From: a virus
Taxonomy: Duplodnaviria > Heunggongvirae > Uroviricota > Caudoviricetes
Virus record (IMG/VR): IMGVR_UViG_2565956629_000010
Direction: 5' to 3' (one strand)
Length of the DNA stretch: 26,233 bases
The translations under genes were made by a program, and so were the position numbers. Below the pieces are notes generated by a model. That model saw nothing but the letters and a program-made list of their open reading frames with translations, ran no database searches and was not told the DNA's origin. How positions within the stretch are numbered: position 1 is the first letter of the stretch; every line of letters starts with the position of its first letter. Positions 1 to 18,490 of this stretch are shown one piece after another.

Positions 1-1053
1 TTACGGGGTAATGCCAACCGCTGCCGCCACTTTGTCGCCACTTGGCAGCGTTGCCAGAGGATTGAAACGGAGCGCCGTTTCCAGATGATCCGGTGCCAGA
101 TGTGCGTAACGCATAGTCATTTTTATATCGTGGTGTCCGAGAATTTTTTGTAAAGCCAGAATGTTTCCACCCGACATCATGAAGTGCGCCGCAAACGTAT
201 GGCGCAGAACGTGTGTGAGTTGACCGCGAGGGAGCACGATAGACGTTTTTTCCATCACGGATAAAAATTGAAAATAGCAGTCTGTGAAGAAATTGAACCC
301 ATCAAGCGCCATGATCTCTTCGTAAAGCTCTTTACTGATAGGGATGCTTCTGTTTTTCTTCCCCTTCGTTCTTACAAAGGTAATTCGGTATTTGGTCACC
401 TGTGAGCGGGTAAGATTTACGGCTTCTCGCCAGCGTGCGCCTGTGCTTAAGCATATCTTAACTACCAGTGCCAGAATTGGGTCCTGACGTTTGCAATCAG
501 CTAGTAATTCAACAATCTGCTCATGGGTAAGCCATGCCATCTCTTTTTCTGCGATGGTGAATTTTCGCATGTTCTCCAGTGGGTTCGGATACGACCATTC
601 GCCCAGGCGGGATAGTTCGCTAAAAACACTACTTAGATAGCTTTGCTCCAGGTTAATGGTGACCGGGCTTGCTCCTTTCTTCCATTTCTCACTGAAGTAG
701 ATCTCACCTGTCAGGCGTTTATCTCGATAGTGGGCAAACATTTTAGAGGTTAGATCAGTTGCAAGGGGATTGCCCAGAGCGTCAACCATCAGCAGCAATT
801 TGTCATAGACATGCTGCCCAGCAGTCAGAGATTTACCATGTAGTTTGAACCATAGCTCAACCACGTCTTTCAGTGTTCGACGATCCACTGATTCACCCAG
901 CCAGGGCTTTGCTTCGGTTTCTTCCATCGTGTGACGCTCAAAAGCCAGTGCTTCGCCTTTGGTGGCGAATTGTTTACGCACACGACGCCCACTACGTCCG
1001 GCGGGGTAACATTCGCAAAGCCATTTTCCTGTGGTGAGTTTTCGTACTGCCAT
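1..1053 (-). CDS. int: P2/186-family tyrosine integrase
   Basis: 350-aa ORF. N-terminus MAVRKLTTGKWLCECYPAGRSGRRVRK is, from memory, typical of P2-like integrases. C-terminal catalytic region has HxxR (HVLRHTFA) and a terminal Tyr (MTMRYAHL). Stop codon is at window position 1-3, so the gene is complete and attL lies outside the window. Confidence 0.9.
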   Translation of the reverse strand: MAVRKLTTGKWLCECYPAGRSGRRVRKQFATKGEALAFERHTMEETEAKPWLGESVDRRTLKDVVELWFKLHGKSLTAGQHVYDKLLLMVDALGNPLATDLTSKMFAHYRDKRLTGEIYFSEKWKKGASPVTINLEQSYLSSVFSELSRLGEWSYPNPLENMRKFTIAEKEMAWLTHEQIVELLADCKRQDPILALVVKICLSTGARWREAVNLTRSQVTKYRITFVRTKGKKNRSIPISKELYEEIMALDGFNFFTDCYFQFLSVMEKTSIVLPRGQLTHVLRHTFAAHFMMSGGNILALQKILGHHDIKMTMRYAHLAPDHLETALRFNPLATLPSGDKVAAAVGITP

Positions 1054-1139: not shown

Positions 1140-2657
1140 TTAATCAAATGATGTGGCCAGTTCAATTAATTCAATGTAATTATGTAAGGCATAAAAAGAT
1201 GTATTCAGACCATTCTCTATAAGGGCTCCTTGCAAATACTTTATAGCTGTATCACCATCAATAGGGCCTTGTTGAGATATAATCATTAGTGAATTTTGCC
1301 CATTGTTTTTTATACTTGATTTAAGCATGTTTATATTATTAATAAAATACAATGCAACATCTAAGTAATTTATTAATGTTAAATTTATTTTGGGCTCGAT
1401 CTGTGAGATGAATAATCTACTGCTCGCCGTTCTATAGATATAATTGACACCTATTCTTTGCTGATTTGTATCAAGATTTAATTCAAGGATGGCTTGAGAA
1501 ACACCTTTTAAATTGGAGCTTTGCTTTATCGAATCAGTGAAACGTTGTGCTGCATTTCTTCGACCAATTAGTCCATCTATAATTTGACGATCCTTATCAT
1601 ATATAATCATTAGCGAAATTATAAAAATATAATCTACTTTCTTTTTGACTAAATCAGATTTAAGAATGTCTATTAACCTTTCAGTATTTCGGATTGAGTC
1701 TCTTAGATTTAACCCAAATGCTTCAAATACGTTGGAAATATTTATTGAAAAGTCTTCTAATGTTGCTGTTAGTGGGTATGTTTTTGATGTGATATTTTCA
1801 AAATCGGTACCAATATAATCACCAACAACACCATTAATTAAATCTTTAAGTTCAGGTTGTTTTAAAGTAAATCTTCTATGAAAAAAACGGCCTAAATAGT
1901 CATTTGCGGAAAAATCATTACCGTAAACATTCTTGATTGAATGTTGTAATTGATCTGTGTCAGTAGCAATAATAAAGACAAAATTTTTAATATCGAATAT
2001 ATGTTTAACAATCTCTAAAAGAGAAATTGCATAATCTGGCCTGCATCTGTCTAATTCATCTATAAAGATAAATATAGGACATGAAAAACTATTTTCATAT
2101 GCCAACCTAGACCATAACGTTAGTTCTTTTTTTAATACCTTAATGCTCTTCAGTTTTTCCTGGTGTTCCTTCAGCATTATTAATGAGGCTTCTTTGGCTA
2201 TATCACCTACGTTATCTACTCCTGCATAAGTCTTGATTAGGCCAGATATGATTTCAGGTAGAACACCTTTTGTAAAGCGTCCGATAGCATGGCCGCTTTG
2301 TATCAATCGAGCATCAAGTTTTCCTGCATATGTTTGCAATTGTTGTGACAAAGAAGAAAAAAGGGTTAAAAATGCATCATCAGAAAAGTCTTGCTTCCAG
2401 GCATCAATGTAAACGCATGGGTGTGCATCTTTTATTGAGTTATAAAATCTCTTTATGAAAAAACTTTTACCAGCTCCCCATTCTGCATTAAGGTTGATTA
2501 CCGTGTTGTTCTTTTGCCCCTTTTCCTTAAGATAAAAATATAGATATTCTGCATAGTGTCTCCGATTAAGTTTGTCTTTGGAAAGAATTTCCTCTTCGTC
2601 GTCTAATATAAAGGTAGTTTCTTCATCCCAGTTCCAATTACAATCACCACATTTCAC
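1140..2657 (-). CDS. KAP-family P-loop NTPase (putative defence or abortive-infection effector)
   Basis: 505-aa ORF. Walker A NAEWGAGKSFF; Walker B-like hhhhDELDRC (IFIFIDELDRCRP), which I recall as characteristic of KAP NTPases. GTG start at 2657 with GGAG about 9 nt upstream. Visibly AT-rich compared with flanking phage genes. Only 25 bp downstream of the preceding gene on the same strand. Confidence 0.55.
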   Translation of the reverse strand: MKCGDCNWNWDEETTFILDDEEEILSKDKLNRRHYAEYLYFYLKEKGQKNNTVINLNAEWGAGKSFFIKRFYNSIKDAHPCVYIDAWKQDFSDDAFLTLFSSLSQQLQTYAGKLDARLIQSGHAIGRFTKGVLPEIISGLIKTYAGVDNVGDIAKEASLIMLKEHQEKLKSIKVLKKELTLWSRLAYENSFSCPIFIFIDELDRCRPDYAISLLEIVKHIFDIKNFVFIIATDTDQLQHSIKNVYGNDFSANDYLGRFFHRRFTLKQPELKDLINGVVGDYIGTDFENITSKTYPLTATLEDFSINISNVFEAFGLNLRDSIRNTERLIDILKSDLVKKKVDYIFIISLMIIYDKDRQIIDGLIGRRNAAQRFTDSIKQSSNLKGVSQAILELNLDTNQQRIGVNYIYRTASSRLFISQIEPKINLTLINYLDVALYFINNINMLKSSIKNNGQNSLMIISQQGPIDGDTAIKYLQGALIENGLNTSFYALHNYIELIELATSFD

Positions 2658-2682
2658 TATGAAGTCTCCATGAAAAATTTAC

Positions 2683-3606
2683 TTAATGTAAACAACTTAT
2701 AATAACTTTTGCAATAAACTCAATATCTGTAAGCGAACATTCAAAAGAGTGATTTTGGGATGAAATATAAACTCGTCCTTTAGGTAGTCGAGTTATCATT
2801 CTAAATGAATTCTCTCCATCAATATTTACTAGCCACTTACCATCATGTACATCTTTAAAACCCATTTCACATATTAATTCAGAGTCTTCGGTAGATACTA
2901 CGAATGCATTTTTTAAATTGGAAGGTAGAAAGCATGGGTCAAATAAATATGAGCCATCATTTATTAACTTGCCATTGATTAATACTTTTTTCACTAATGT
3001 TAAAGTATCTTTATTTTTTGCGTTTTTCATTTCTCCTGTACCAAATGAAATCCATTCAATAGAATGGCCCGTTTCTATTGCACACTGCAAAACCCAGTCT
3101 GCAGGAAAAATGTCACGCATGTATCGTGTGGCTAATGTGCTTTTTGAAATACCTAGGTGATCAGCTAATGCTTGGCGCGTTTTGTAACCGTAAGCCTCGA
3201 CAATTCGTTCTATTGTTGCCTTACCCCCTCGGTTAAAATTCATGAGTTTTTCATTATCGAACTTTATAGTGGGAATGTATACTTCATTGCAAAGGCCATT
3301 AACGGCATGTTTTTCAGAATATTGCTCTGATGAAGGAGCAGTATCTGAACCAAGAACTAACCATTCAATTGATGCTCCTGTTTCTATGGAACATATAACA
3401 ACCCAATCTGCAGGAAAGGTATTACGTGCATATCTGTTGGCCATAGTACTTTGGGAAATACCTAGATGATTACATAATGCCTGTCGTGACTTGAAGCCAT
3501 AGGCTAGGAGTATACGCTCAATAACTTTTTGCCCTCCACGATTCTGCATAACTATTGCTTTCAGATCGTTTTTGATATGGCTAAATTTTAATTTTTGAGT
3601 TGACAT
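2683..3606 (-). CDS. CI-repressor paralog with tandemly duplicated N-terminal HTH domain
   Basis: 307-aa ORF. Two consecutive copies of the CI N-terminal domain (RGGQKVIERILLAYGFKSRQALCNHLGISQSTMANRY...FPADWVVICSIETGASIEWL and RGGKATIERIVEAYGYKTRQALADHLGISKSTLATRYMRDIFPADWVLQCAIETGHSIEWI), then a C-terminal domain homologous to the CTD of the adjacent 191-aa repressor (KLINDGSYLFDPCFLPSNLKNAFV...HDGKWLVNIDGE...ITRLPKGR). Confidence 0.6.
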   Translation of the reverse strand: MSTQKLKFSHIKNDLKAIVMQNRGGQKVIERILLAYGFKSRQALCNHLGISQSTMANRYARNTFPADWVVICSIETGASIEWLVLGSDTAPSSEQYSEKHAVNGLCNEVYIPTIKFDNEKLMNFNRGGKATIERIVEAYGYKTRQALADHLGISKSTLATRYMRDIFPADWVLQCAIETGHSIEWISFGTGEMKNAKNKDTLTLVKKVLINGKLINDGSYLFDPCFLPSNLKNAFVVSTEDSELICEMGFKDVHDGKWLVNIDGENSFRMITRLPKGRVYISSQNHSFECSLTDIEFIAKVIISCLH

Positions 3607-3656
3607 ATTTTTTACACCACAACAAATGCTTTACCAAGCATAAAAACATTCCTATA

Positions 3657-4232
3657 TTACTCAAAGTACTTAACTGTTATGCTTATAATTTTTCCAATAA
3701 TTTCGATTTCTTCTTTTTTACATTCGAAAGCCCTATTTCCACCTTCAACTAAGATTCTTCCACCAGGTAAACGAGTGATATCGCGGATTGTTACTTCGGC
3801 ATCAATACTTATTACCCATTTGCCGTCACGAATATCGTTAAACTCTTTATCGCAAATAAAAACGGAATTGTTATCGGTGATTACAAACGGATTTTTGAGC
3901 GTAGATGGTAGAAATTCTTTATCGAAAATATAAAAACCATCTTCCTGCAAGGTTCCATCAGATAATACATATTTAACGACTTCCATAGTATTTGTATTAC
4001 CTGAAGTTTGCTTTGAACCATGTCCGGTCGTGAGCCAGTTAAGCGAGGCGCCCGTTTCAAGTGCGCACTGGATTACCCATTCAGCAGGGAATGAGTCACG
4101 CATATAGCGTGTGGCGAGAGTACTTTTAGAGATTCCTAAGTGATCGCACAACGCCTGTCGAGTCTTGAAGCCATATGCTTCTACCATGCGCTCTATAGCG
4201 CCTCGTCCGCCTTTCTCCAAATTCATGGTCAC
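3657..4232 (-). CDS. cI: 186-type CI immunity repressor
   Basis: 191-aa ORF divergent from the apl-like gene. N-terminal HTH region (AYGFKTRQALCDHLGISKSTLATRYMRDSFPAEWVIQCALETGASLNWLTTG) and C-terminal domain. Size and position match my recollection of phage 186 CI (about 192 aa). Confidence 0.7.
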   Translation of the reverse strand: MTMNLEKGGRGAIERMVEAYGFKTRQALCDHLGISKSTLATRYMRDSFPAEWVIQCALETGASLNWLTTGHGSKQTSGNTNTMEVVKYVLSDGTLQEDGFYIFDKEFLPSTLKNPFVITDNNSVFICDKEFNDIRDGKWVISIDAEVTIRDITRLPGGRILVEGGNRAFECKKEEIEIIGKIISITVKYFE

Positions 4233-4351
4233 TCCAAGTGAACTTTTGTCTTGACGATTTCATTATGCGATCGTATGTTTATGATGTTCACAAAATACAA
4301 ACGATCCGTATTCGTCCTGATTAATCAACATTAAACGAGGAATGTTGCATC
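4233..4351. promoter_or_regulatory. immunity switch region between cI and apl (candidate lytic and lysogenic promoters and operator half-sites)
   Basis: Rightward candidate: -35 TTGACG (4251-4256), 17-nt spacer, -10 TATGTT (4274-4279). Leftward candidate: -35 TGAACA (complement of 4284-4289), -10 CATAAT (complement of 4262-4267). Inverted half-sites GTGAAC (4238-4243) / GTTCAC (4286-4291) flank them. GAGGAA RBS precedes the apl ATG. Confidence 0.3.
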
Positions 4352-4573
4352 ATGAAACCTAACATTTCAATCACTCTTACCACGCCTCATGTGACTATTG
4401 AACGTTATAGCGAGCTGACAGGGCTATCCATCGATACTATCAATGACATGTTGGCTGATGGACGTCTTATCCGTCACCGTCTGCGGAAAGATAAAAAACG
4501 CGAAAAAGTGATGATCAACATAGCAGCCATGACCGTTGATGCGCTTTCAGAATGCAATCTAAACCTTAATTAG
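4352..4573 (+). CDS. apl: Apl/Cox-like excisionase and switch regulator
   Basis: 73-aa basic ORF immediately divergent from cI, the position of apl (186) or cox (P2). Contains an HTH-like segment ([22 protein letters not shown]). Confidence 0.5.
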
Positions 4574-5929: not shown

Positions 5930-6156
5930 TGGCTGATGCAATGGATCTCGTACAGCAGCGCGTTGAAGAAGAACGCCAGCGTCATATCCGTGCTGCCCGC
6001 GCCAAAACGCCGGGCGTATCCCGCGTGCTTTGCATTGAGTGTGAAGCACCAATTCCGCCAGCACGACGTCGCGCCATTCCGGGTGTGCAGCTTTGCATTA
6101 CCTGTCAGGAAATCGCAGAGCTGAAAGGCAAACATTACAACGGAGGTGCTGTATGA
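5929..6156 (+). CDS. TraR/DksA-family C4 zinc-finger protein
   Basis: 75 aa with CIECEAPIPPARRRAIPGVQLCITCQE, a C-x2-C-x17-C-x2-C pattern typical of TraR/DksA-type zinc fingers found in P2-like early regions. Confidence 0.65.
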   Translation: MADAMDLVQQRVEEERQRHIRAARAKTPGVSRVLCIECEAPIPPARRRAIPGVQLCITCQEIAELKGKHYNGGAV

Positions 6157-7010
6157 GCACCATCCTGAAATGGGCGGGTAATAAAACCGCCATTATGCCA
6201 GAACTGAAAAAATACCTTCCTGCTGGCCCGCGACTGGTTGAACCTTTCGCGGGTTCTTGTGCTGTGATGATAGAGACGGATTACCCCAGCTATCTTGTTG
6301 CGGATATTAATCCTGATTTAATCAACCTCTATAAAAAGGTTGCTGCTGATTGCGAGGCGTTTATATCTCGTGCCAGAGCTTTATTTGAGGAAGCAAACAG
6401 GGAGGTGGCTTATTACAACATAAGGCAGGAGTTTAATTACTCCACTGAAATTACTGATTTCATGAAAGCGGTATATTTCCTGTATCTCAATCGTCATGGT
6501 TACCGTGGGTTATGTCGCTATAACAAGAGCGGGCATTTCAACATTCCCTACGGGAATTATAAAAATCCGTATTTCCCTGAAAAAGAAATTCGCAAATTTG
6601 CAGAAAAAGCCCAGCGAGCAACGTTTATCTGCGCCAGCTTTGATGAAACGCTGGCGATGTTGAAGGCGGGGGATGTGGTGTATTGCGATCCGCCTTATGA
6701 CGGTACGTTTTCCGGCTATCACACTGATGGCTTCACTGAGGATGACCAGTATCACCTGGCATCCGTTCTTGAACATCGATCATCTGAAGGTCATCCGGTC
6801 ATTGTTTCTAACAGTGACACATCCCTGATTCGTTCGCTGTATCGCAATTTCACTCACCACTACATCAAGGCAAAACGCAGCATCGGCGTGTCGGCTGGCG
6901 AGAGTAAATCTGCAACAGAAATCATTGCTGTTTCCGGGGCGCGCTGCTGGGTGGGATTTGATCCTTCGCGTGGCGTGGATAGTTCTGCTGTGTACGAGGT
7001 GCGTGTATGA
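6153..7010 (+). CDS. dam: Dam-type DNA adenine (GATC) methyltransferase
   Basis: True start ATG 6153 with GGAGG at 6143-6147; the ORF track extends upstream spuriously. Resembles E. coli Dam along its length: [35 protein letters not shown] catalytic motif ([10 protein letters not shown]). Confidence 0.85.
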
Positions 7011-9421
7011 GTCATGATGATATGAGCAACTCTAGCGGCTTTAACGAGGCCGCTGCAGCATTTTCATGGAACGGCCCGAAAAAGGCCATTAACCCTTATC
7101 TGGACCCGGCGGAAGTTGCGCCGGAGTCTGCACTTTCAAACATGATCACTCTGTACGCTGCCGATAACGAGCAGGAACAGCTGCGCCGCGATGCACTGAG
7201 TGAGCAGGTCTGGGAGCGTTATTTCTTTAATGAATCCCGTGATCCTGTCCAGCGCGAAATGGAGCAGGATAATCTCATTAGTCGGGCAAAGCTGGCGCAT
7301 GAGCAGCAGCGTTTTAACCCGGACATGGTCATTATGGCGGACGTCAGCGCCCAGCCCACCCACATCAGCAAGCCGCTGATGCAACGTATCGAATACTTCA
7401 GCAGCCTGGGCAGGCCAAAGGCTTATTCCCGCTATTTGCGTGAGACGATTAAGTCATGTCTGGAGCGACTGGAGTATGTACGCGACAGTCAGCTATCCGC
7501 TTCTTTCCGTTTTATGGCAAGCCATCAAGGGCTTGAGGGCCTGCTGATCCTGCCTGAAATGAGTCAGGATCAGGTAAAACGCCTGTCCACCTTGGTAGCA
7601 GCGCATATGAGCATGTGTCTTGAGGCCGCTTGTGGTGATTTGTATGCCTCCGATGACGTTAAGCCAGAAGAAATCCGCAAGACATGGGAAAAGGTGGCAG
7701 CGGAAACCCTGCGTCTGGATGTTATCCCGCCTGCGTTTGAGAAACTCCGTCGGAAAAGAAACCGCCGCAAACCCGTGCCCTATGAACTCATACCGGGTTC
7801 GCTGGCACGTATGCTTTGCGCCGACTGGTGGTATCGAAAATTGTGGAAGATACGTTGCGAATGGCGGGAAGAGCAGTTGCGTGCTGTCTGCCTGGTCAGC
7901 AAAAAAGCATCTCCCTATGTCAGCTATGAAGCAGTGACGCATAAACGTGAGCAGCGCCGCAAGTCGCTGGAGTTTTTCCGTTCTCATGAACTGGTGAACG
8001 AAGACGGCGACACGCTGGATATGGAAGATGTGGTAAACGCCAGCAGCAGCAACCCGGCGCACCGCCGCAATGAGATGATGGCCTGTGTTAAAGGTCTGGA
8101 GCTTATCGCGGAAATGCGTGGTGACTGCGCCGTTTTCTACACCATTACCTGTCCGTCACGTTTCCATTCTACGCTCAATAACGGCAGACCAAACCCAACC
8201 TGGACAAATGCGACGGTAAGACAAAGCAGCGATTATCTGGTCGGCATGTTTGCTGCATTTCGTAAGGCTATGCACAAAGCCGGGTTGCGCTGGTATGGCG
8301 TGCGGGTGGCTGAGCCGCACCATGACGGTACTGTGCACTGGCATCTCATGTGTTTCATGCGCAAAAAAGACCGCCGCGCCATTACTGCATTGTTGCGTAA
8401 GTTTGCCATCCGTGAAGACCGCGAGGAACTGGGCAATAACACGGGTCCACGCTTTAAGTCTGAGCTGATAAACCCGCGCAAAGGAACGCCGACAAGCTAC
8501 ATCGCGAAATACATCAGTAAGAACATTGACGGACGTGGTCTGGCTGGCGAGATCAGCAAGGAAACGGGTAAATCCCTGCGTGATAACGCCGAATACGTTA
8601 ATGCCTGGGCGTCTCTGCATCGTGTTCAGCAGTTCCGCTTCTTTGGTATTCCGGGGCGTCAGGCGTACCGTGAACTTCGCTTGCTGGCTGGTCAGGCGGC
8701 AAGGCAACAGGGTGACAAAAAAGCAGGTGCGCCGGTACTGGATGACCCGCGCCTTGATGCCATCCTGGCTGCCGCTGATGCTGGCTGTTTTGCCACCTAC
8801 ATCATGAAGCAGGGCGGCGTACTGGTTCCCCGCAAATATCACCTTATCAGAACAGCTTATGAAATTAACGAAGAGCCGACCGCTTATGGCGATCACGGTA
8901 TTCGTATTTATGGCATCTGGTCACCCATTGTACAGGGCAAGATCTGCACTCATGCAATGAAATGGAAAATGGTTCGTAAGGTCGTTGACGTTCAGGAGGC
9001 GGCAGCCGACCAGGGCGCTTGCGCCCCTTGGACTCGTGGCAATAACTGTCCCCTTGCTGAAAATTTGAACCAACAAGGGAAAGACAAATCAGCTGATGGG
9101 GACTCCAGAACGGATATTACCCGTATGAATGACAAGGAGTTGCACGATTACCTGCACAGTATGAGCAAAAAAGAGCGCCGGGAACTGGCTGCAAGGTTAC
9201 GCCAGGTGAAACCGAAACGGCGTAAAGACTACAAACAGCGAATTACAGACCATCAGCGACAGCAGCTCGTCTATGAACTGAAGTCCAGGGGATTTGATGG
9301 CAGCGAGAAAGAAGTCGATTTGCTCCTTCGCGGCGGCAGTATTCCGTCAGGAGCAGGCCTGCGTATCTTCTATCGGAACCAGCGTCTGAAGGAAGATGAT
9401 AAGTGGCGGAACCTATATTAA
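7007..9421 (+). CDS. A: P2 gpA-like rolling-circle replication initiator endonuclease
   Basis: 804-aa ORF following the early genes. HUH-type motif [13 protein letters not shown], and YIAKYISK with candidate catalytic tyrosines. Start overlaps the dam stop. Confidence 0.85.
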
Positions 9422-9516
9422 TTACGCGGGTTAACAATTCGTGCTCTTAATAATACCAGGCATATCAGGCCGATGAACGTAAAAAAAACGTTTTACATCA
9501 GTAAGATTATTATATA

Positions 9517-9532
9517 CTGTAAATATAAACAG
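9517..9532 (+). promoter_or_regulatory. LexA box (SOS operator) upstream of the tum-like/dinI-like genes
   Basis: CTGTAAATATAAACAG matches CTGT-N8-ACAG exactly with an AT-rich centre. Lies about 45 bp upstream of the 9575 start, within an AT-rich promoter-like stretch. Confidence 0.6.
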
Positions 9533-9574
9533 TGGTTATGTGTACAGTATTGTTTTGGTGTCATAGGAGGAAAG

Positions 9575-9763
9575 ATGCAGGACTATTTTTTGGAGTCTTT
9601 GAAGCTCCAGCGCATTGATTTTTTTCTTAAGCTTGTAGCGGCTAGTGAGTGTAGTGATGAAGAGAAGGGGCTGGCTCTGCAGTGGGTTTCTGAATTGACT
9701 GATGAACTCATGGCAAAAATCAGAAGCCACGAATACAACCGCTCAATGGATGTCATCAGCTGA
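9575..9763 (+). CDS. small SOS-controlled protein, possible Tum-like antirepressor
   Basis: ATG at 9575 with AGGAGG at 9565-9570. 62 aa. Sits between the LexA box and the DinI-like gene; in 186 the LexA-controlled gene at this position is tum, whose C-terminal part I recall as DinI-like. Assignment is by position only. Confidence 0.35.
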   Translation: MQDYFLESLKLQRIDFFLKLVAASECSDEEKGLALQWVSELTDELMAKIRSHEYNRSMDVIS

Positions 9764-9773
9764 GGTGACTTTT

Positions 9774-10007
9774 ATGCGCATTGAAATAATGATCGATAAA
9801 GAGCAGAAGATTAGCCAGTCTACCCTGGACGCCCTTGAATCCGAGCTTTACCGCAATCTGCGCCCCCTGTATCCCAAAACGGTAATTCGCATTCGCAAAG
9901 GTAGCTCTAACGGTGTGGAACTAACCGGACTGCAACTGGATGAAGAAAGAAAACAAGTGATGAAAATTATGCAGAAGGTGTGGGAGGACGACAGCTGGCT
10001 GCATTAA
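9774..10007 (+). CDS. dinI: DinI-family protein
   Basis: ATG at 9774 with GAGG at 9763-9766. 77 aa. MRIEIMIDKEQKISQSTLDALESELYRNLRPLYP...KVWEDDSWL parallels E. coli DinI as I recall it (MRIEV...ETWESADDWF), including the acidic C-terminus. Confidence 0.7.
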   Translation: MRIEIMIDKEQKISQSTLDALESELYRNLRPLYPKTVIRIRKGSSNGVELTGLQLDEERKQVMKIMQKVWEDDSWLH

Positions 10008-10199
10008 GAAATGTTGCCCCCAGGAGGATTCATTCTGATGGGGGCTAGTTTGGGCAATGAGTGAAATAAGGCGTAAGGTGGGCGGTTATTTTGATAAGTG
10101 ATCGTCCGCTTTGTGTCAGAAGCAGAAGTGGGAGTGTCTGAGACTCTCTAAAAGTTGATGATTCACTTACAAAACCATTTTCCTGATGGATGCTTACAC

Positions 10200-10535
10200 T
10201 TACGAATGATCATTCTGTTTAGTCTTCATGAGAAAATCCCGAATCTTTGCCAAGTTTGAATTTTCGGGGATTGAATCCATGTACGGATCACGCTCAAACA
10301 CTAATTGCTCAGATTCAACGAAAGCCTGCCACTCTACTGGGTCTAGCTCAAATCCCATTGCTGTCATATCACTTTCATCTTCCCCCTCGATCCAGTGGAC
10401 TAAATAAAACAATTCATCATCAGGAGAATCATCCTCACCATCAACAATATCAACATCGGTTACAGTGATACGTAGGGTGGGATCGATTTTTGAGACATAA
10501 ATTCCTAACTGTGGTATAGGGGGAATATTGTTCAT
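10200..10535 (-). CDS. small highly acidic protein of unknown function
   Basis: 111-aa ORF. ATG at 10535 with AAGGAG about 8 nt upstream on the minus strand. Runs of D/E (DVDIVDGEDDSPDDE, IEGEDESD). Sits between the replication/SOS module and cos, where P2 carries old/tin. Confidence 0.5.
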   Translation of the reverse strand: MNNIPPIPQLGIYVSKIDPTLRITVTDVDIVDGEDDSPDDELFYLVHWIEGEDESDMTAMGFELDPVEWQAFVESEQLVFERDPYMDSIPENSNLAKIRDFLMKTKQNDHS

Positions 10536-10847
10536 GGAAACTCCTTTTATTGGTGTTTGCTATTTGAATAAAAATACGCCAAACAGAGTGTTAACTGTGA
10601 ATATGGAAAGAATCGTTGTAAGTACCCCGCTTAGGTGTCCCATTCTATTTTAGAGGTTCTCGTGCATATGGATTATGTTATCTGAAAGTTAACTTCCGCT
10701 TCCCGTTCACAGCGAACATTCATCTTTGTAAACCCGTATGATCCGTTTTTCAAGTGGCCATTCAGATACGGATTTTTACTTCTTTGACAGTGCATGACTA
10801 TGCTGCATGAAATCGCATGATCGATTGAGGATCGTCTTTGCTCAGAT

Positions 10848-10870
10848 CCGCCAGAACTGGCGGGCTTTTG
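10848..10870 (+). terminator. candidate intrinsic terminator upstream of cos
   Basis: GC-rich inverted repeat CCGCCAG (10848-10854) / CTGGCGG (10857-10863) with a very short loop, followed by GCTTTTG. Confidence 0.3.
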
Positions 10871-10914
10871 CTCATGTCATGCATGTGCATGAAAACCACT
10901 GCATAAAGCGGGCA

Positions 10915-10933
10915 GGCGTGGCGGGGATACGAG
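10915..10933. other. candidate cos site (cohesive-end region)
   Basis: GGCGTGGCGGGGATACGAG followed by CGCGCGC. From memory the P2 left end begins GGCGAGGCGGGGAAAGCAC, giving a 13-nt core match with one mismatch. It is a GC-rich island in an otherwise AT-rich non-coding stretch, and its orientation toward Q is the same as in P2. Confidence 0.4.
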
Positions 10934-11014
10934 CGCGCGCAATGCTATGATCTGGCTCTTTCAAAACTGTTAACGGTTCTTCACATTCTTAAATGATCAT
11001 GGTAGCTTAAGCAT

Positions 11015-11145
11015 GCACATGTAGGCAGATTTGTTGGTTGTGGTATCGCAATCAGTGATCTAAATGTTAGATGGATTCGCCTTCTGACATCCTTGTAGCC
11101 ATTCTTGGGCTGTCCTATGCTTTGCGTAAGAGTGCCTACATGTGC
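11015..11145 (+). ncRNA. putative retron msr-msd locus bounded by a2/a1 inverted repeats
   Basis: Perfect 13-bp inverted repeat GCACATGTAGGCA (11015-11027) / TGCCTACATGTGC (11133-11145) enclosing 105 nt, immediately upstream of the RT gene on the same strand. A G at 11028 directly follows the left repeat (possible branching G). Internal stem ATCTAA-ATG-TTAGAT at about 11058-11072. Possible promoter -35 TTCACA (10980-10985). Confidence 0.5.
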
Positions 11146-11180
11146 CTACCCTAACTGATAATCAAGGTTGATTTTTAGAT

Positions 11181-12938
11181 ATGGCACCCCTATCAATTTT
11201 AGAACGTTTACAAAACGCTGCTAACAGGCAAGATTTGGCTAGTATCTTGAATCTTAAAACTGCTTTTCTTACGGATGTTATTTATCGTTTAAAAGCTGAA
11301 ACGCAGTATACACAATTTACTATTCCTAAAAAAAACGGAGCGCCGAGAGTCATATCAGCACCTACCACTAAGCTCAAAGATATTCAACGTAGATTAGCTG
11401 ATGTTTTATATTTATGTCGTGCAGAAATTTATAAAAAATATAATATTAATCCAGTTTTATCTCATGGGTTTGAAAAAGAAAAGTCAATTATTACGAATGC
11501 TGAACGGCATAGAGGTAAAACGCTACTACTAAATATAGATCTTGAGGATTATTTTGATAGTTTTAATTTTGGACGTGTTAGAGGTTTTTTCTTATCAAAC
11601 AGAGATTTTAGATTAAATAATACTGTTGCTACAACGATCGCACAAATTGCATGTTTTCAGAATGGACTTCCTCAAGGAAGCCCATGCTCTCCAATTATAA
11701 GTAACTTAATCAGTGGAATTCTTGATATAAGATTATCAAAGTTAGCAAAGAAATACGGATGCAATTATTCACGGTATGCTGATGATCTTACATTTTCAAC
11801 TAATAAAAAAACATTTCCAAAAGAGATTGCTGATGTTGGCGGAGAGTCTGTAACCCTAAGTCCAACTTTAATTAAAGAGATTATAAAGGCTGGCTTTAAA
11901 ATAAATGATAAAAAGACAAGGGTTTGTTATAAAACATCACGACAAGATGTTACTGGGTTGACTGTTAATAAAAAAGTGAATGTTGGCAAAGAATATGCAA
12001 AAGTAACGCGTGCAATGGCTCATTCTCTTTATAAAGATGGTTCTTTTGTTATTGTTACTGAATCAGGAAAGATTGAAAAAGGTACATGTGCTAAATTAGA
12101 AGGCCGTTTTGGATTCATTGACTCAATAGATAAATATAATAATTTAAAACTAAAGAACGCAAGACAGTTGGAAAAGTACCAAAGTGTAAATCATGGATTA
12201 AACTACACTGCAAAATTGAATTCGAGAGAAAAAGCCTACAGTTATTTTCTATACTATAAAAATTTTCATGGAATGGAAATGCCAACAATACTCACTGAGG
12301 GTAAAACAGACCGTGTATATTTAAAGTGTGCTTTGAAGTCATTGGCGAATTCATATCCTTTATTGTTTAATTCTTCTGATGATAGCTCTAAAAATGAGTA
12401 TCGTGTTAATTTTTTTAAAGCAACTGAAAAAACAAGCTATTTTCTTGACATTTCTGGCGGTGCTACAGACTTCAAAAGATTTATATTAAGATACCAAGAA
12501 CAAAAAAAGAGGTTCGAGAAATTTAAACCAAAGCACCCTGTTATTATGCTTCTTGATAATGACTCAGGCCCTAAAGATTTATTAAATCACTTAAAGGATA
12601 AAGTAAAAAATTGTCCAAATGATGTTGATACTATTCGTAAGGCAAGGTATACCCACATATTTGACAATCTCTATTTGTTATTAACACCATTGCTTCCTGG
12701 AGGGAAAGAGTCTTGTATGGAGGATTTATTTGATAGCACGGTACTATCAACGGTGCTTGATGGAAAGACATTTAATAAATCTAATGATACGGATACAAAA
12801 ACAGAATATGGTAAGCATGTGTTTTCAACAAAGGTTATAAAGGCAAATTGTAAAACAATTAGTTTTGAAAAGTTTAAAGTTATTTTTGATGGTATTGAGG
12901 AAATTATTGCAGATTATTCAAAGAGGTGCAAAGTATAA
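11181..12938 (+). CDS. retron-type reverse transcriptase with C-terminal Toprim-like domain
   Basis: 585 aa. RT motifs: FTIPKKNGAPRVISAP, LLLNIDLEDYFDSF, LPQGSPCSPIISNL, and the catalytic YADD in YSRYADDLTFS. The C-terminal half has Toprim-like EG..D (PTILTEGKTDRVYL) and DxD (VIMLLDNDSGPKD). AT-rich. Length is close to the 586 aa I recall for the retron-Ec67 RT. Confidence 0.8.
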   Translation: MAPLSILERLQNAANRQDLASILNLKTAFLTDVIYRLKAETQYTQFTIPKKNGAPRVISAPTTKLKDIQRRLADVLYLCRAEIYKKYNINPVLSHGFEKEKSIITNAERHRGKTLLLNIDLEDYFDSFNFGRVRGFFLSNRDFRLNNTVATTIAQIACFQNGLPQGSPCSPIISNLISGILDIRLSKLAKKYGCNYSRYADDLTFSTNKKTFPKEIADVGGESVTLSPTLIKEIIKAGFKINDKKTRVCYKTSRQDVTGLTVNKKVNVGKEYAKVTRAMAHSLYKDGSFVIVTESGKIEKGTCAKLEGRFGFIDSIDKYNNLKLKNARQLEKYQSVNHGLNYTAKLNSREKAYSYFLYYKNFHGMEMPTILTEGKTDRVYLKCALKSLANSYPLLFNSSDDSSKNEYRVNFFKATEKTSYFLDISGGATDFKRFILRYQEQKKRFEKFKPKHPVIMLLDNDSGPKDLLNHLKDKVKNCPNDVDTIRKARYTHIFDNLYLLLTPLLPGGKESCMEDLFDSTVLSTVLDGKTFNKSNDTDTKTEYGKHVFSTKVIKANCKTISFEKFKVIFDGIEEIIADYSKRCKV

Positions 12939-12948
12939 CTGTAATTAC

Positions 12949-12972
12949 AGGCAAAGAGTATGCTCTTTGCCT
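12949..12972. terminator. hairpin between the convergent RT and portal genes
   Basis: 10-bp perfect stem AGGCAAAGAG / CTCTTTGCCT with 4-nt loop TATG, followed on the plus strand by TGTATTGT. Lies in the 49-bp gap between the RT stop (12938) and the Q stop (12988). Confidence 0.45.
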
Positions 12973-12987
12973 TGTATTGTGGGACGA

Positions 12988-14022
12988 TTACATATCTAAG
13001 TTATATTCTGTAAATGCGATAATATCTGTACCTAACCAGACATTAATCTCCTTGATCCGTTTTTGCATTGATATCAATTCGTTTCTTACGAATACCTTAC
13101 TAGCCTTTTCCACATCCCCAAACCCCCCAACATTATTAGGCATAATCCCCATCATTTGCGGCGGCACGCGGTGCGCAGCCATCATGTCATCGCGGCTGAC
13201 ATTTTTGATATTCAGAAACTCATCCTTCGCCGCGACCTCTGACAACGGGATAATCTGAAGCCCGTCTTTTTTGCCGTTAGGCGAGTACATAAACAGATTG
13301 CGGAAGTTGCCAGGGCCTTTGGCGCTTTTCATCGCATTGCGGAGGTTGTTCACATCCTCCTGGTTCTGCGCGGCATCGGTCATGTACATGATGAAGCCTG
13401 CATGACTACCGTTAATGTAATATTTGCGGCGGAACAGCGTGGCGGACTCGTTGAGCAAAGCGGATGGGATGGCAGAAAGATAGCCGGGCAGGCCGTAGAT
13501 CTCCTGATTAATATCCGGTTCCATCAGATGAAAAATGCTGCCTTTCGTGAACTGATACGGCTGGGTTGTCATACCGTATTGCACAAACCAGTAGATATCC
13601 AGGTCTAACCCGCGTCGGGTATATTTTGCCAGGGCAGGCTCAAGGGCGATAACTTCACCGAAGCGGTTCGTGCGTTTCTCCAGGTAGGCGTTACCAAATA
13701 CCAGGTAGTCCTGCACAAAACGTGAAAAAGCCTGCTGGCTGAGCAGCGGGTGAGGGATATAGGTACTGGTCAGAATGTTGCACTTTACTGCAATCGGGGA
13801 ACTGTGATGCACGGCAGCGCGGAAGGTGCGCGCCAGTCCGTCAAAGCTGACGGGCGGCTCATACCAACGGTCCATCTGTACGCATTCCACATAGTCCAGT
13901 AATTCTCGGCGGTCCAGAACAGGAACGGGATCGCCGAAGCTGAATGCTTCGGCTGTAGTTTGACTTTTAAGCTGGATCTGATTCGTCGCCGCAGCGCGGT
14001 TCTTCTTACTCTTTCCCATCAA
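12988..14022 (-). CDS. Q: portal protein (P2 gpQ-like)
   Basis: 344 aa, same length as P2 Q as I recall it. Overlaps the terminase gene by 4 nt and is transcribed with it, divergent from the O operon. Confidence 0.85.
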   Translation of the reverse strand: MMGKSKKNRAAATNQIQLKSQTTAEAFSFGDPVPVLDRRELLDYVECVQMDRWYEPPVSFDGLARTFRAAVHHSSPIAVKCNILTSTYIPHPLLSQQAFSRFVQDYLVFGNAYLEKRTNRFGEVIALEPALAKYTRRGLDLDIYWFVQYGMTTQPYQFTKGSIFHLMEPDINQEIYGLPGYLSAIPSALLNESATLFRRKYYINGSHAGFIMYMTDAAQNQEDVNNLRNAMKSAKGPGNFRNLFMYSPNGKKDGLQIIPLSEVAAKDEFLNIKNVSRDDMMAAHRVPPQMMGIMPNNVGGFGDVEKASKVFVRNELISMQKRIKEINVWLGTDIIAFTEYNLDM

Positions 14023-15785
14023 AAAATCTCCACAATATTGCTGGTATTGGCGGATTCGCCCTGCAGCGGTTCGTTAAACAGTGCGTGCATCGTTGCCCAT
14101 GCCAGATCGGCGTGGCTGGCTTCTTCGCTGCGGCTGGCTTCATAGGTCGGGCGGTTGCCACTGGCGGTGGTGGAGCGACGGATTGCCATAAAGGACTGCG
14201 CTATGTCGGTGTGTCCGGCGTCAAACTCCAGACGGCGGTGGCTGATAATGTCGTAGGCCTTGAGTACCAGGGCGTTTTTAACGTTGGGGTTGTAGACAAA
14301 CTCCCGGACGGCAGGAAAGAACGCTTTCACGTTCTCATAAACCCCGTGACCAACGCCGGTTGAGTCGATACCGATATAGGTCACGTTGTACTGTTCGGTC
14401 AGTTTTTTGATGGCGTCAGCCTGGGCGCGAAAGTCCATCCCGCGCCACTGGTGACGCTCAAGAATGCGGAACTTGCCGCCCGGCACGGCTGGCGGTGCCA
14501 CCACCACGCATCCGGCACTGTCGCCGTTCTGCGTACCTTTCGCCGGGTCATAACCGATCCACACTTCGCGCCAGCCAAATGGGCGCAGTGCCAGTGCATG
14601 AAAGTCGGTCCAGACTTCCCAGCTGTCCACCATGCACGCCTGCAGCTCGCTGAGTGGGAACACAGACGCGAGATCGTCCACAAACTCGCACATCAGCAGG
14701 TTCTGGTATTCGTCCGGGCTGTACTCCATGCGTAACTGATCGAGGTCGAACAGGTTACATCCGCCGCGCACTGCATCTTCCACGGTGACTATCTGGCGGT
14801 ATTGCCCGTCTGCGCACAGCAGGCCGGGGGCCAGATTGCTGTGGGACAGGTCGATGTCCACCTTATCGGCTTTGTTGCGCCCACGGTTGAACAGCGCACC
14901 GGACCAGAACGGATAAGCACTGTGTGTCAGGCTGGATGGCGTGGAAAAATAGGTTTGTCGCCATTTTTTGTGAATAGCCATACCGGAAGCCACTTTGCGC
15001 AGCTCCTGGAATTTCGGTATCCAGAAATATTCATCCAGATACAGGTTGCCGTGGTAACTCTGGGCTGTGCGGGCATTGGTGCCGAGGAAGTAAAGCGTGG
15101 CCCCGTTGGGAAGCACCATCGGATCGCCTTTCAGCTCCACCTCCACTTCTTTGGCGAAGTCGATGATGTACTGTTTAAAGACGTGGGCCTGTGCTTTACT
15201 GGCGGAAAGGAAAATCTGGTTACGTCCAGTCAGAAGGGCGTCAATCAGGGCTTCACGGGCAAAGTAAAAGGTCGCGCCGATCTGGCGTGACTTCAGCAGG
15301 TTGCGGATGCGGTTGGTTTTTCCGGCTTCCCACCAGTGGCGCTGGTAGTTGAACATGGAGGAATGGAAGATTTCTTCCAGCTTCTCAATCTGCTCATCGG
15401 TGAAAACATTCTTTTCCGGCTGACGGCGTGGGCCTTTATTGCGGTTGGCGACGTTAGGGTTTAAGTCGGCTTCGTTGCCGCCATTGTTAAACTTGCCGAT
15501 CCGCGCGTGGCGCTCCGACTGGCGCGCCAGCAGGTCAATCTCTTTGAAATCTTTCCCTTCTTTGTGCTCCTTCATGATGAGCTGGCAGTAGCGTGCGGCG
15601 GTGGTGAGCTGCATCTGATCCAGCGGCCCATAGTCACCCCACTTGTCGCGTTTTTTCCAGCTGTGAACGGTTGCAACTTTCTCGCCCAGCATTTCAGCAA
15701 TGCGGGCTACGCGGTATCCCTGAAAGTACAGCAGCATGGCCTGCCGACGGGGATCGAGATCTGCGGGTGTCAGTGTGGTGTTCAT
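14019..15785 (-). CDS. P: terminase large (ATPase) subunit (P2 gpP-like)
   Basis: 588 aa (P2 P is about 590). Position upstream of Q, divergent from the scaffold/capsid operon. Confidence 0.85.
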   Translation of the reverse strand: MNTTLTPADLDPRRQAMLLYFQGYRVARIAEMLGEKVATVHSWKKRDKWGDYGPLDQMQLTTAARYCQLIMKEHKEGKDFKEIDLLARQSERHARIGKFNNGGNEADLNPNVANRNKGPRRQPEKNVFTDEQIEKLEEIFHSSMFNYQRHWWEAGKTNRIRNLLKSRQIGATFYFAREALIDALLTGRNQIFLSASKAQAHVFKQYIIDFAKEVEVELKGDPMVLPNGATLYFLGTNARTAQSYHGNLYLDEYFWIPKFQELRKVASGMAIHKKWRQTYFSTPSSLTHSAYPFWSGALFNRGRNKADKVDIDLSHSNLAPGLLCADGQYRQIVTVEDAVRGGCNLFDLDQLRMEYSPDEYQNLLMCEFVDDLASVFPLSELQACMVDSWEVWTDFHALALRPFGWREVWIGYDPAKGTQNGDSAGCVVVAPPAVPGGKFRILERHQWRGMDFRAQADAIKKLTEQYNVTYIGIDSTGVGHGVYENVKAFFPAVREFVYNPNVKNALVLKAYDIISHRRLEFDAGHTDIAQSFMAIRRSTTASGNRPTYEASRSEEASHADLAWATMHALFNEPLQGESANTSNIVEIF

Positions 15786-17839: not shown

Positions 17840-18490
17840 ATGAGCCTGAGTCCCGCACGGCAGCATCGCCTGCGCGTTCAGGCTGAACAGGCCGCCCGTG
17901 AGGGCGGCAGTGTTCGCCACGCGTCGGGCTATGACCTGATGCTGCTGCAACTGGCGGAAGACCGCCGCCGTCTCAAGGGCGTTCAGTCCACGGTGAAAAA
18001 AGCGGAAATAAAGGTGGAGCTGCTGCCGAAGTACGCCGCCTGGGCAGAGGGCGTCCTGGCTGCCGGAGGCACTCAACAGGATGACGTGCTGATGTACGTG
18101 ATGCTGTGGCGCATTGATGCCGGAGATTATGCCGGGGCGCTGGAGATCGGGCGTCATGCCCTGCGTCATGGCTGGGTGATGCCGCTGGGTAACCGCAACG
18201 TGCAGACCGTGCTGGCAGAGGAAATGGCAGATGCGGCGCAGAGCGCAATGCTTGCCGCCACCGGCTTTGATGCCGATCTGTTGCTGCAGACGCTGGAGCT
18301 GACAGACGGTCTGGATATGCCGGACCAGTCACGGGCGCGTCTGCATAAAGCGATTGGCGCTGTCCTGAGTGAAAGCAACCCGGCTTCCGCCCTTAATCAT
18401 CTCAACCATGCGTTACAGCTCGATCCCCGCTGTGGCGTGAAAAAAGACAAACAGCAGCTGGAGCGCAGACTGCGCAATGACAGCCGCTGA
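17840..18490 (+). CDS. M: terminase small/endonuclease subunit (P2 gpM-like)
   Basis: 216-aa ORF directly after N, GGAG RBS. Position as in the P2 O-N-M-L order. Confidence 0.75.
   Translation: MSLSPARQHRLRVQAEQAAREGGSVRHASGYDLMLLQLAEDRRRLKGVQSTVKKAEIKVELLPKYAAWAEGVLAAGGTQQDDVLMYVMLWRIDAGDYAGALEIGRHALRHGWVMPLGNRNVQTVLAEEMADAAQSAMLAATGFDADLLLQTLELTDGLDMPDQSRARLHKAIGAVLSESNPASALNHLNHALQLDPRCGVKKDKQQLERRLRNDSR

Follow-up and report, generated by a model that had tools for sequence, protein, structure and literature searches.

The window, i.e. the whole 26,233-nucleotide stretch of viral DNA analysed here, is 100% identical to part of the chromosome of Escherichia coli Ec1117, and its genes were assigned using the RefSeq annotation of that chromosome together with the ORF map (Table 1). 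It belongs to a 186/P2-like (Peduoviridae) prophage, which comprises 35,081 bp between 14-bp direct repeats. The integrase gene is followed by two CI-type repressor genes and then by the early operon, and further genes for scaffold, capsid, lysis, and tail functions are located downstream of the portal gene. All genes expected from int to ogr, including those for the portal, both terminase subunits, capsid, tail, and lysis, are annotated as intact in the 100%-identical record; the genes from that for the tail sheath to D and ogr lie just outside the window and are also intact. The length of 35.1 kb is within the range observed for records of related phages, e.g. 35,155 bp for SopEPhi. The prophage is a complete 186-like element.

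Table 1. Features of the window discussed in the text.
Feature	Position	Strand	Basis or remark
Integrase gene	1–1053	-	RefSeq annotation and ORF map
KAP-family P-loop NTPase gene and adjoining extra CI-like repressor gene (two CI HTH stretches)	1140–2657 and 2683–3606	-	Between int and the 186-type cI
DNA adenine (Dam) methylase gene	6093–7010	+	Upstream of the replication endonuclease gene
Replication endonuclease gene	7007–9421		RefSeq annotation and ORF map
Small hypothetical gene	10200–10535	-	Near a DinI-like gene; RefSeq annotation and ORF map
Inverted repeat TCCGCCAGAACTGGCGGG, terminator-like hairpin	10847–10864	+	50–70 bp before the predicted cut site
Part of the cos core on the right-end side (-29 to -1), TGCATGAAAACCACTGCATAAAGCGGGCA	10886–10914	+	Columns conserved in the window, MLG42, 186, P2, and P4; part of the ∼55-bp P2/P4 homology
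Predicted cohesive end GGCGTGGCGGGGATACGAG, 19 nt; predicted left end of the packaged genome	10915–10933	+	In register with the annotated cos of 186 and P2
Part of the cos core on the left-end side, CGCGCGC followed by AA	10934–10942	+	GCGCGC invariant in the five aligned sequences; conservation ends here, ahead of the cargo
Exchangeable cargo cassette: retron, hairpin, and last ∼16 portal codons	10943–13035	+	GC content ∼0.3; blastn against siblings with other cargo
Retron ncRNA (msr-msd)	11015–11145	+	a1, 11015–11027; a2, 11133–11145; alignment to Ec67-family loci
Candidate branching G in CAGA	11026–11029	+	Motif as described for Ec67
RT-Toprim fusion gene (585 aa), Ec67/Eco2 family, type I-C	11181–12938	+	PDB, PADLOC, Pfam, and RefSeq matches
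GC-rich hairpin separating the RT gene from the convergent portal gene	12949–12972	.	10-bp stem, 4-nt loop, T-rich tail on the + strand
Portal gene, homologue of P2 Q and 186 W	12988–14022	-	Aligns end to end with 186 W and P2 Q; Pfam Phage_portal
Intact gene for the large (ATPase) terminase subunit, homologue of P2 P	14019–15785	-	ORF; 'terminase ATPase subunit family protein' in the 100%-identical record
Intact gene for the small (endonuclease) terminase subunit, homologue of P2 M	17840–18490	+	ORF and annotation

Several other genes of this prophage deserve a brief description. Like 186, it possesses an SOS module of the LexA/DinI type. In PADLOC, the KAP-family NTPase hits the candidate defence family PDC-S20 (8e-78), with weaker matches to PifA and QatA; the segment that it forms with the extra CI-like repressor gene looks like a second cargo slot and is absent from the sibling prophage L136. 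The Dam methylase gene belongs to the ordinary gene set of the lineage and also occurs in siblings that carry no retron; it presumably corresponds to the 'Dam methylase' that early publications attributed to a 34-kb 'retron-Ec67 element'. In the part of the prophage outside the window, a gene for a 'recombinase family protein' (11887–12453 of locus L010) adjoins the tail-fibre and tail-fibre-assembly genes, an arrangement suggestive of a Gin/Cin-type invertible segment that would switch host range through the tail fibre.

The 26.2 kb of the window was searched on both strands with a degenerate P2/186 cos consensus, allowing up to three mismatches. The only match, which contains no mismatch, is the 19-mer GGCGTGGCGGGGATACGAG at 10915–10933, directly followed by CGCGCGC at 10934–10940, i.e. 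the segment that the original prediction had singled out as the best cos-like sequence. Shuffled sequences yielded a mean of 0.18 matches at the three-mismatch threshold, and a chance origin of the match was rejected on the basis of this value, the lack of mismatches, and the in-register conservation of the flanks. Even with three mismatches, no second cos-like site was detected on either strand of the 26.2 kb, and the consensus search detected no cos-like sequence beside the portal stop codon (12940–12990).

The site was then aligned with the cos regions of 186, P2, and P4, anchored at their annotated cut sites or cos features and using the circularised ends of 186 and P2, and the corresponding region of Yersinia phage vB_YpM_MLG42 (MLG42) was added. 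In this alignment the 19-mer is in register with the cos of all three reference phages, and the conserved columns of the five sequences extend from about -30 (TGCATnAAAACC...AAGnGGGC) through the cohesive end to the GCGCGC at +7, corresponding to a core conserved from -30 to +26 when counted from the cut. The window shares with 186, P2, and P4 a 19-nt 5' cohesive-end sequence of the GGCGWGGCGGGGA... type, this conserved core, and its adjacency to the portal/terminase operon. When aligned at the annotated cos features, the 19-mer is identical at 15 of 19 positions to that of 186 and at 14 of 19 to that of P2; the positions differing from 186 are 14, 16, 17, and 19 (ATACGAG in the window versus AAAGCAT). 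The homology between the P2 and P4 cos sites is given as ∼55 bp in the portion of PMC9594776 that cites Ziermann & Calendar (1990). The gene order around the site is likewise P2-like, i.e. replication endonuclease A, the DinI-like gene, cos, cargo, portal, and terminase.

In a megablast search of the phage collection, segment 10789–10942 matched 45 records of P2-like phages with 87–92% identity and E-values down to 1e-51. The 19-mer and the following CGCGCGCAA are identical in MLG42, which was isolated on Y. pestis, indicating that a viable phage carries exactly this cos-homologous variant; the variant, which differs from 186 at 4 of 19 positions, was found in MLG42 and in at least 120 viral contigs. 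Judged by its sequence, 10915–10933 is a homologue of the P2/186-type cos, by homology and not by chance, and cleavage of this prophage by terminase at 10915/10933 would be predicted from the same homology. The inverted repeat that precedes the site has counterparts in 186, MLG42, and P4 and is absent from P2; it could be a terminator or a portion of an extended terminase recognition region or cos. Its identification as t95b of 186 was considered and rejected, because t95b is located ∼160–190 bp before the end of the 186 record and the 186 repeat that aligns with 10847–10864 is another element.

The DNA between this site and the portal gene contains a retron. Its ncRNA aligns with that of canonical Ec67 (locus L008) and those of two other Ec67-family retrons, the msr being conserved and the msd divergent. 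In the consensus fold, a1 pairs with a2 over 13 bp with four compensatory pairs, and the minimum free energy of the ncRNA fold is -54.8 kcal/mol (z = -5.2). The CAGA motif after a1, which includes the candidate branching G, has been reported for Ec67 (PMC6868368). A search of 9500–13500 against Rfam with a permissive E-value gave no match for a retron ncRNA. No sigma-70-like promoter on the + strand upstream of msr scored above the threshold of the scan, and the sole candidate, TTCACA-17-TAGCTT at ∼10982–11010, was read by eye and is weak.

The RT-Toprim protein matches the 'Retron Ec67 protein' of PDB (9lm3/9i2f) over residues 4–579 (E = 5e-217), with the YADD, TEGKTD, and DND motifs conserved, the PADLOC model RT-Toprim_I-C over residues 5–583 (2.7e-223), and Pfam RVT_1 (5e-27), and is named 'retron Ec67 family RNA-directed DNA polymerase/endonuclease' in RefSeq. 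It shares ∼57% global protein identity and ∼65% DNA identity with canonical Ec67 (Eco2). On these matches, the cargo retron is a divergent, single-gene member of the known Ec67/Eco2 family. Eco2 forms a pre-assembled, msDNA-caged RT-Toprim trimer; degradation of the msDNA by a nuclease of the incoming phage (DenB) frees the Toprim, which then cleaves tRNAs (PMC12916289). By homology to Eco2, the retron of the window may produce msDNA and confer a defence phenotype; at ∼57% identity, its trigger and target could differ from those of Eco2. The GC-rich hairpin that separates the RT gene from the portal gene is likely to be a terminator for both genes, and occupies the position equivalent to that of tW/tQ in 186/P2, with an unrelated sequence.

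Among 5426 complete E. coli genomes, the retron cassette is present in 14, which come from varied hosts. An identical RT (WP_023145585.1) is encoded by a sibling prophage with different accessory genes, and an IMG/VR viral contig (L099) carries an RT with ∼97–99% identity in the same slot between cos and portal. These distributions support the proposal that the retron spreads with the phage. Megablast of 10540–13000 against the phage collection matched the cos flank only, indicating that no deposited phage genome contains this retron variant at the ∼85% DNA identity required by megablast. As for the family in general, an Ec67-family retron occurs in 541 E. coli genomes, in most of them as a copy that is ∼53% identical in protein; in JJ1887 (ST131; 2501–4418 of locus L007), the one genome inspected, this copy is located near dhaR, outside a P2-like prophage and beside an ABC-three-component system, in a setting that looks like a chromosomal defence island.

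The limits of the cargo were defined by blastn comparison with siblings that carry other cargo. Homology to these siblings stops at 10942–10944 and resumes at 13032–13036, i.e. 45–48 nt inside the portal coding sequence; in strain 18KM2445, the identity up to the left break is 99.9% over 4.4 kb. The retron (msr-msd plus RT) is a cargo between cos and the Q homologue, as had been proposed, and the spacer of 2054 bp (10934–12987) agrees with the proposed distance of about 2 kb between cos and portal. The original prediction had contrasted this distance with a P2 cos lying only a few tens of bp from the Q stop codon, a figure that needs correction: the spacers of P2 and 186 are 167 and 176 bp, respectively, including the tQ/tW terminator. 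The first base after the 26-nt core differs from that of the window in 81 of 120 viral contigs among the matches listed, whereas the right homology breakpoints in 83 viral contigs scatter over 12992–13103 in the portal gene. The left boundary of the cassette is very sharp and the right boundary is spread. The last ∼16–40 codons of the portal gene (12988–13103) have a GC content of ∼0.3–0.35 versus ∼0.5–0.6 further into the gene, and the DNA of this 3' end differs between prophages with different cargo, each cargo being accompanied by a low-GC form of its own, with the encoded C-terminus still homologous.

Various cargos occupy the same slot in related elements: an Sll1717-family P-loop ATPase in a sibling, retron Ec86 with its effector in BL21, canonical Ec67 in L008, another Ec67 variant in L009, and a Hypoth_Ymh protein in phage 813R9; in phage MLG42, the slot is an 'empty' 158-bp spacer with a terminator. 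A scan of IMG/VR for the exact 26-nt cos core identified at least 120 contigs, and the 86 of them with a portal gene were analysed. The portal gene lies downstream on the minus strand in all 86 of these contigs, and cos and portal are separated by 153 to 3531 bp (median, ∼1.6 kb); the 2054-bp gap of the window is therefore typical for the lineage. The slot contents of the same 86 contigs, which come from the at least 120 listed, fall into 63 sequence clusters, with 12 contigs being 'empty' and 7 containing retron-type RTs. The interval between cos and portal is a variable cargo hotspot that includes empty sites. Because cos in this lineage is often 1–3.5 kb from the portal gene, the short spacer of P2 is unsuited as a rule for locating cos in prophages.

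The opposite flank of cos is also subject to replacement. The sibling prophage L136 (strain PS3Tanimalfeces2), which encodes the identical RT and contains no KAP NTPase gene, carries genes for a SIR2-family protein and an ATP-binding protein at 11395–14294, on the right-end side of cos, where this pair replaces the small hypothetical gene of the window. Both sides of cos are thus variable, and the presence of an identical RT with different accessory genes indicates that the modules assort independently. In another IMG/VR contig (L076), two exact 26-nt cos cores are present in opposite orientation at 3440–3465 (-) and 6704–6729 (+), ∼3.2 kb apart, which could represent two adjacent elements or a rearrangement.

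We consider it highly probable (roughly 0.88) that 10886–10942 is the cos of a complete 186/P2-like prophage and that 10943 to ∼13035 is an exchangeable retron cassette in a variable slot between cos and portal that has long been known, a reading that brings together what was computed here on the homology of cos, the boundaries of the cassette, the family of the retron, the completeness of the prophage, and the variability of the slot. After induction, the two terminase subunits (14019–15785 and 17840–18490) would make staggered nicks flanking 10915–10933, so that the left end of the linear genome would begin at 10915 and, by the P2/186 map convention, the cassette would form its extreme left end, the place that the original prediction had given to the retron. 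In the lysogen, the retron would act, by homology to Eco2, as an abortive-infection defence. The slot would tolerate cargo because it is located outside all operons: on one side is the cos core, ending 7–9 bp beyond the cohesive end, and on the other the terminator of the leftward operon for portal and terminase.

The cargo may be swapped by homologous recombination between related phages, with one crossover in the 3' end of the portal gene. The other boundary would be set by cos, as the linear genetic map ends there, and a single crossover in the portal 3' end would, as in classical phage genetics, exchange the terminal cargo only. The boundary pattern, sharp at cos and diffuse in the portal gene, fits ordinary homologous recombination by this putative route. 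A more specific version, which we put forward tentatively and regard as rather doubtful, is that the unit of exchange consists of the cos end, cargo, terminator, and portal C-terminus, with the low-GC portal end travelling with each cargo by single crossovers in the portal 3' end and the other edge being fixed at cos+7. This unit might also move to and from P4-like satellites, which hold cargo on the same side of a near-identical core. If the C-terminal segment of the portal protein were co-adapted with the cargo or the DNA end, it would represent a new constraint on defence-gene traffic.

Of the other explanations, the one that survives best is that the prophage is packaging-defective (cryptic) and the site a relic of its cos, so that the retron resides in dead phage DNA and is never packaged. 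Defective relics of this kind do exist, an example being the Ec86-bearing relative in BL21, in which the replication endonuclease gene is a truncated pseudogene. For the prophage analysed here, however, this explanation is unlikely, given the intact annotation from int to ogr in the 100%-identical record, the full conservation of the cos core, in which the 19-mer and CGCGCGCAA are identical to those of an isolated plaque-forming phage, and a length in the range of functional relatives.

It is less probable still that the retron was placed at the left end in order to enter a new host first and to act early in exclusion or defence, although the predicted linear genome does have the cassette at its end and, more speculatively, the strong conservation of the cos flank on the right-end side would be in line with packaging from that side, which would make the left end the last in and the first out. 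The slot harbours many unrelated cargos, and 12 of the 86 contigs are empty, suggesting that position reflects insertional tolerance rather than retron-specific timing; an Ec67-family retron is also found outside prophages, near dhaR in ST131. Phage DNA ejection takes seconds to minutes, and circularisation precedes expression. The original prediction had reasoned from the left end to the first DNA to enter and from there to an early-acting function, and this reasoning is unsupported, since the sequence gives no indication of which end leaves the virion first. No statement of which end of P2/186 DNA is tail-attached or injected first was found in the literature searched. The right end of both P2 and 186 DNA is reportedly attached to the tail (Chattoraj & Inman, 1974), in which case the left end would enter last. 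In addition, the mechanism of Eco2 needs a pre-formed msDNA-protein complex in the resident cell (PMC12916289) and is independent of the order of entry.

The idea that the functional cos is elsewhere, e.g. at 12940–12990 by the portal stop codon, with 10915–10933 being a duplicate or decoy, is very improbable, because nothing was found in its favour other than an expectation from P2 geometry, whereas the window contains no second consensus match at three mismatches, 12939–12987 holds only a hairpin, and the relatives all have a single cos at the equivalent of 10915, irrespective of cargo length.

The preferred reading, a retron cassette in the slot between cos and portal, corresponds to an arrangement that is already known, and the prediction is in this respect correct. 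As cited in PMC6868368 and PMC5694545, Dodd & Egan (1996, Virology 219:115) placed retron Ec67 in a 186-related prophage between cos and portal. The Ec67 prophage has the same order, with a 186-type cos, msr-msd, and a gene for a ∼585-aa RT-Toprim protein directed toward portal, which replace a cos–terminator spacer of ∼180 bp; in L008, which carries the canonical Ec67, the cos 19-mer and CGCGCGC are identical to those of the window and are directly followed by the retron. The window differs from it in the sequence of the msd stem-loop, the msr and the a1/a2 stems being conserved, and in the right junction, which falls within the portal coding sequence and not at the terminator. Retron Ec86 (Retron-Eco1) in the 186-like prophage of E. 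coli B/BL21 has the same cos core and slot, with homology to the window ending at 10944 and resuming at 13034, but is another type of retron with a separate effector gene and an RT of the 'St85 family' that is only distantly related to that of the window (E = 6e-33).

The divergent Ec67-family variant (∼57% identity to Eco2; 14 of 5426 E. coli genomes) and the right junction inside the portal coding sequence are mildly new, descriptive features. Otherwise, the window represents a textbook temperate phage with a predicted retron defence in its cos-proximal slot, which is of little importance beyond correct annotation. The interval between cosL and Q has been noted as a hotspot for foreign genes in phiCTX and phiRSY1 (PMC5694545), and Rousset et al. 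(2022) catalogued 1,650 arrangements, retrons among them, in the cos-proximal gpA–gpQ region of P2-like phages, which they described as a hotspot of defence genes (PMC9122126). Their P2 locus extends from gpA to gpQ and thus covers both sides of cos, whereas the retron of the window is on the portal side. P2 and 186 themselves have only their short spacers in place of the 2054 bp found here, and P4 carries variable genes (gop/beta/cII) on the same side of a near-identical core, with CGCGCGCAA after the cohesive end. As in the window, highly variable accessory or defence genes are located directly beside cos in the hotspots of P2-like and P4-like elements, and nothing essential differs between them.
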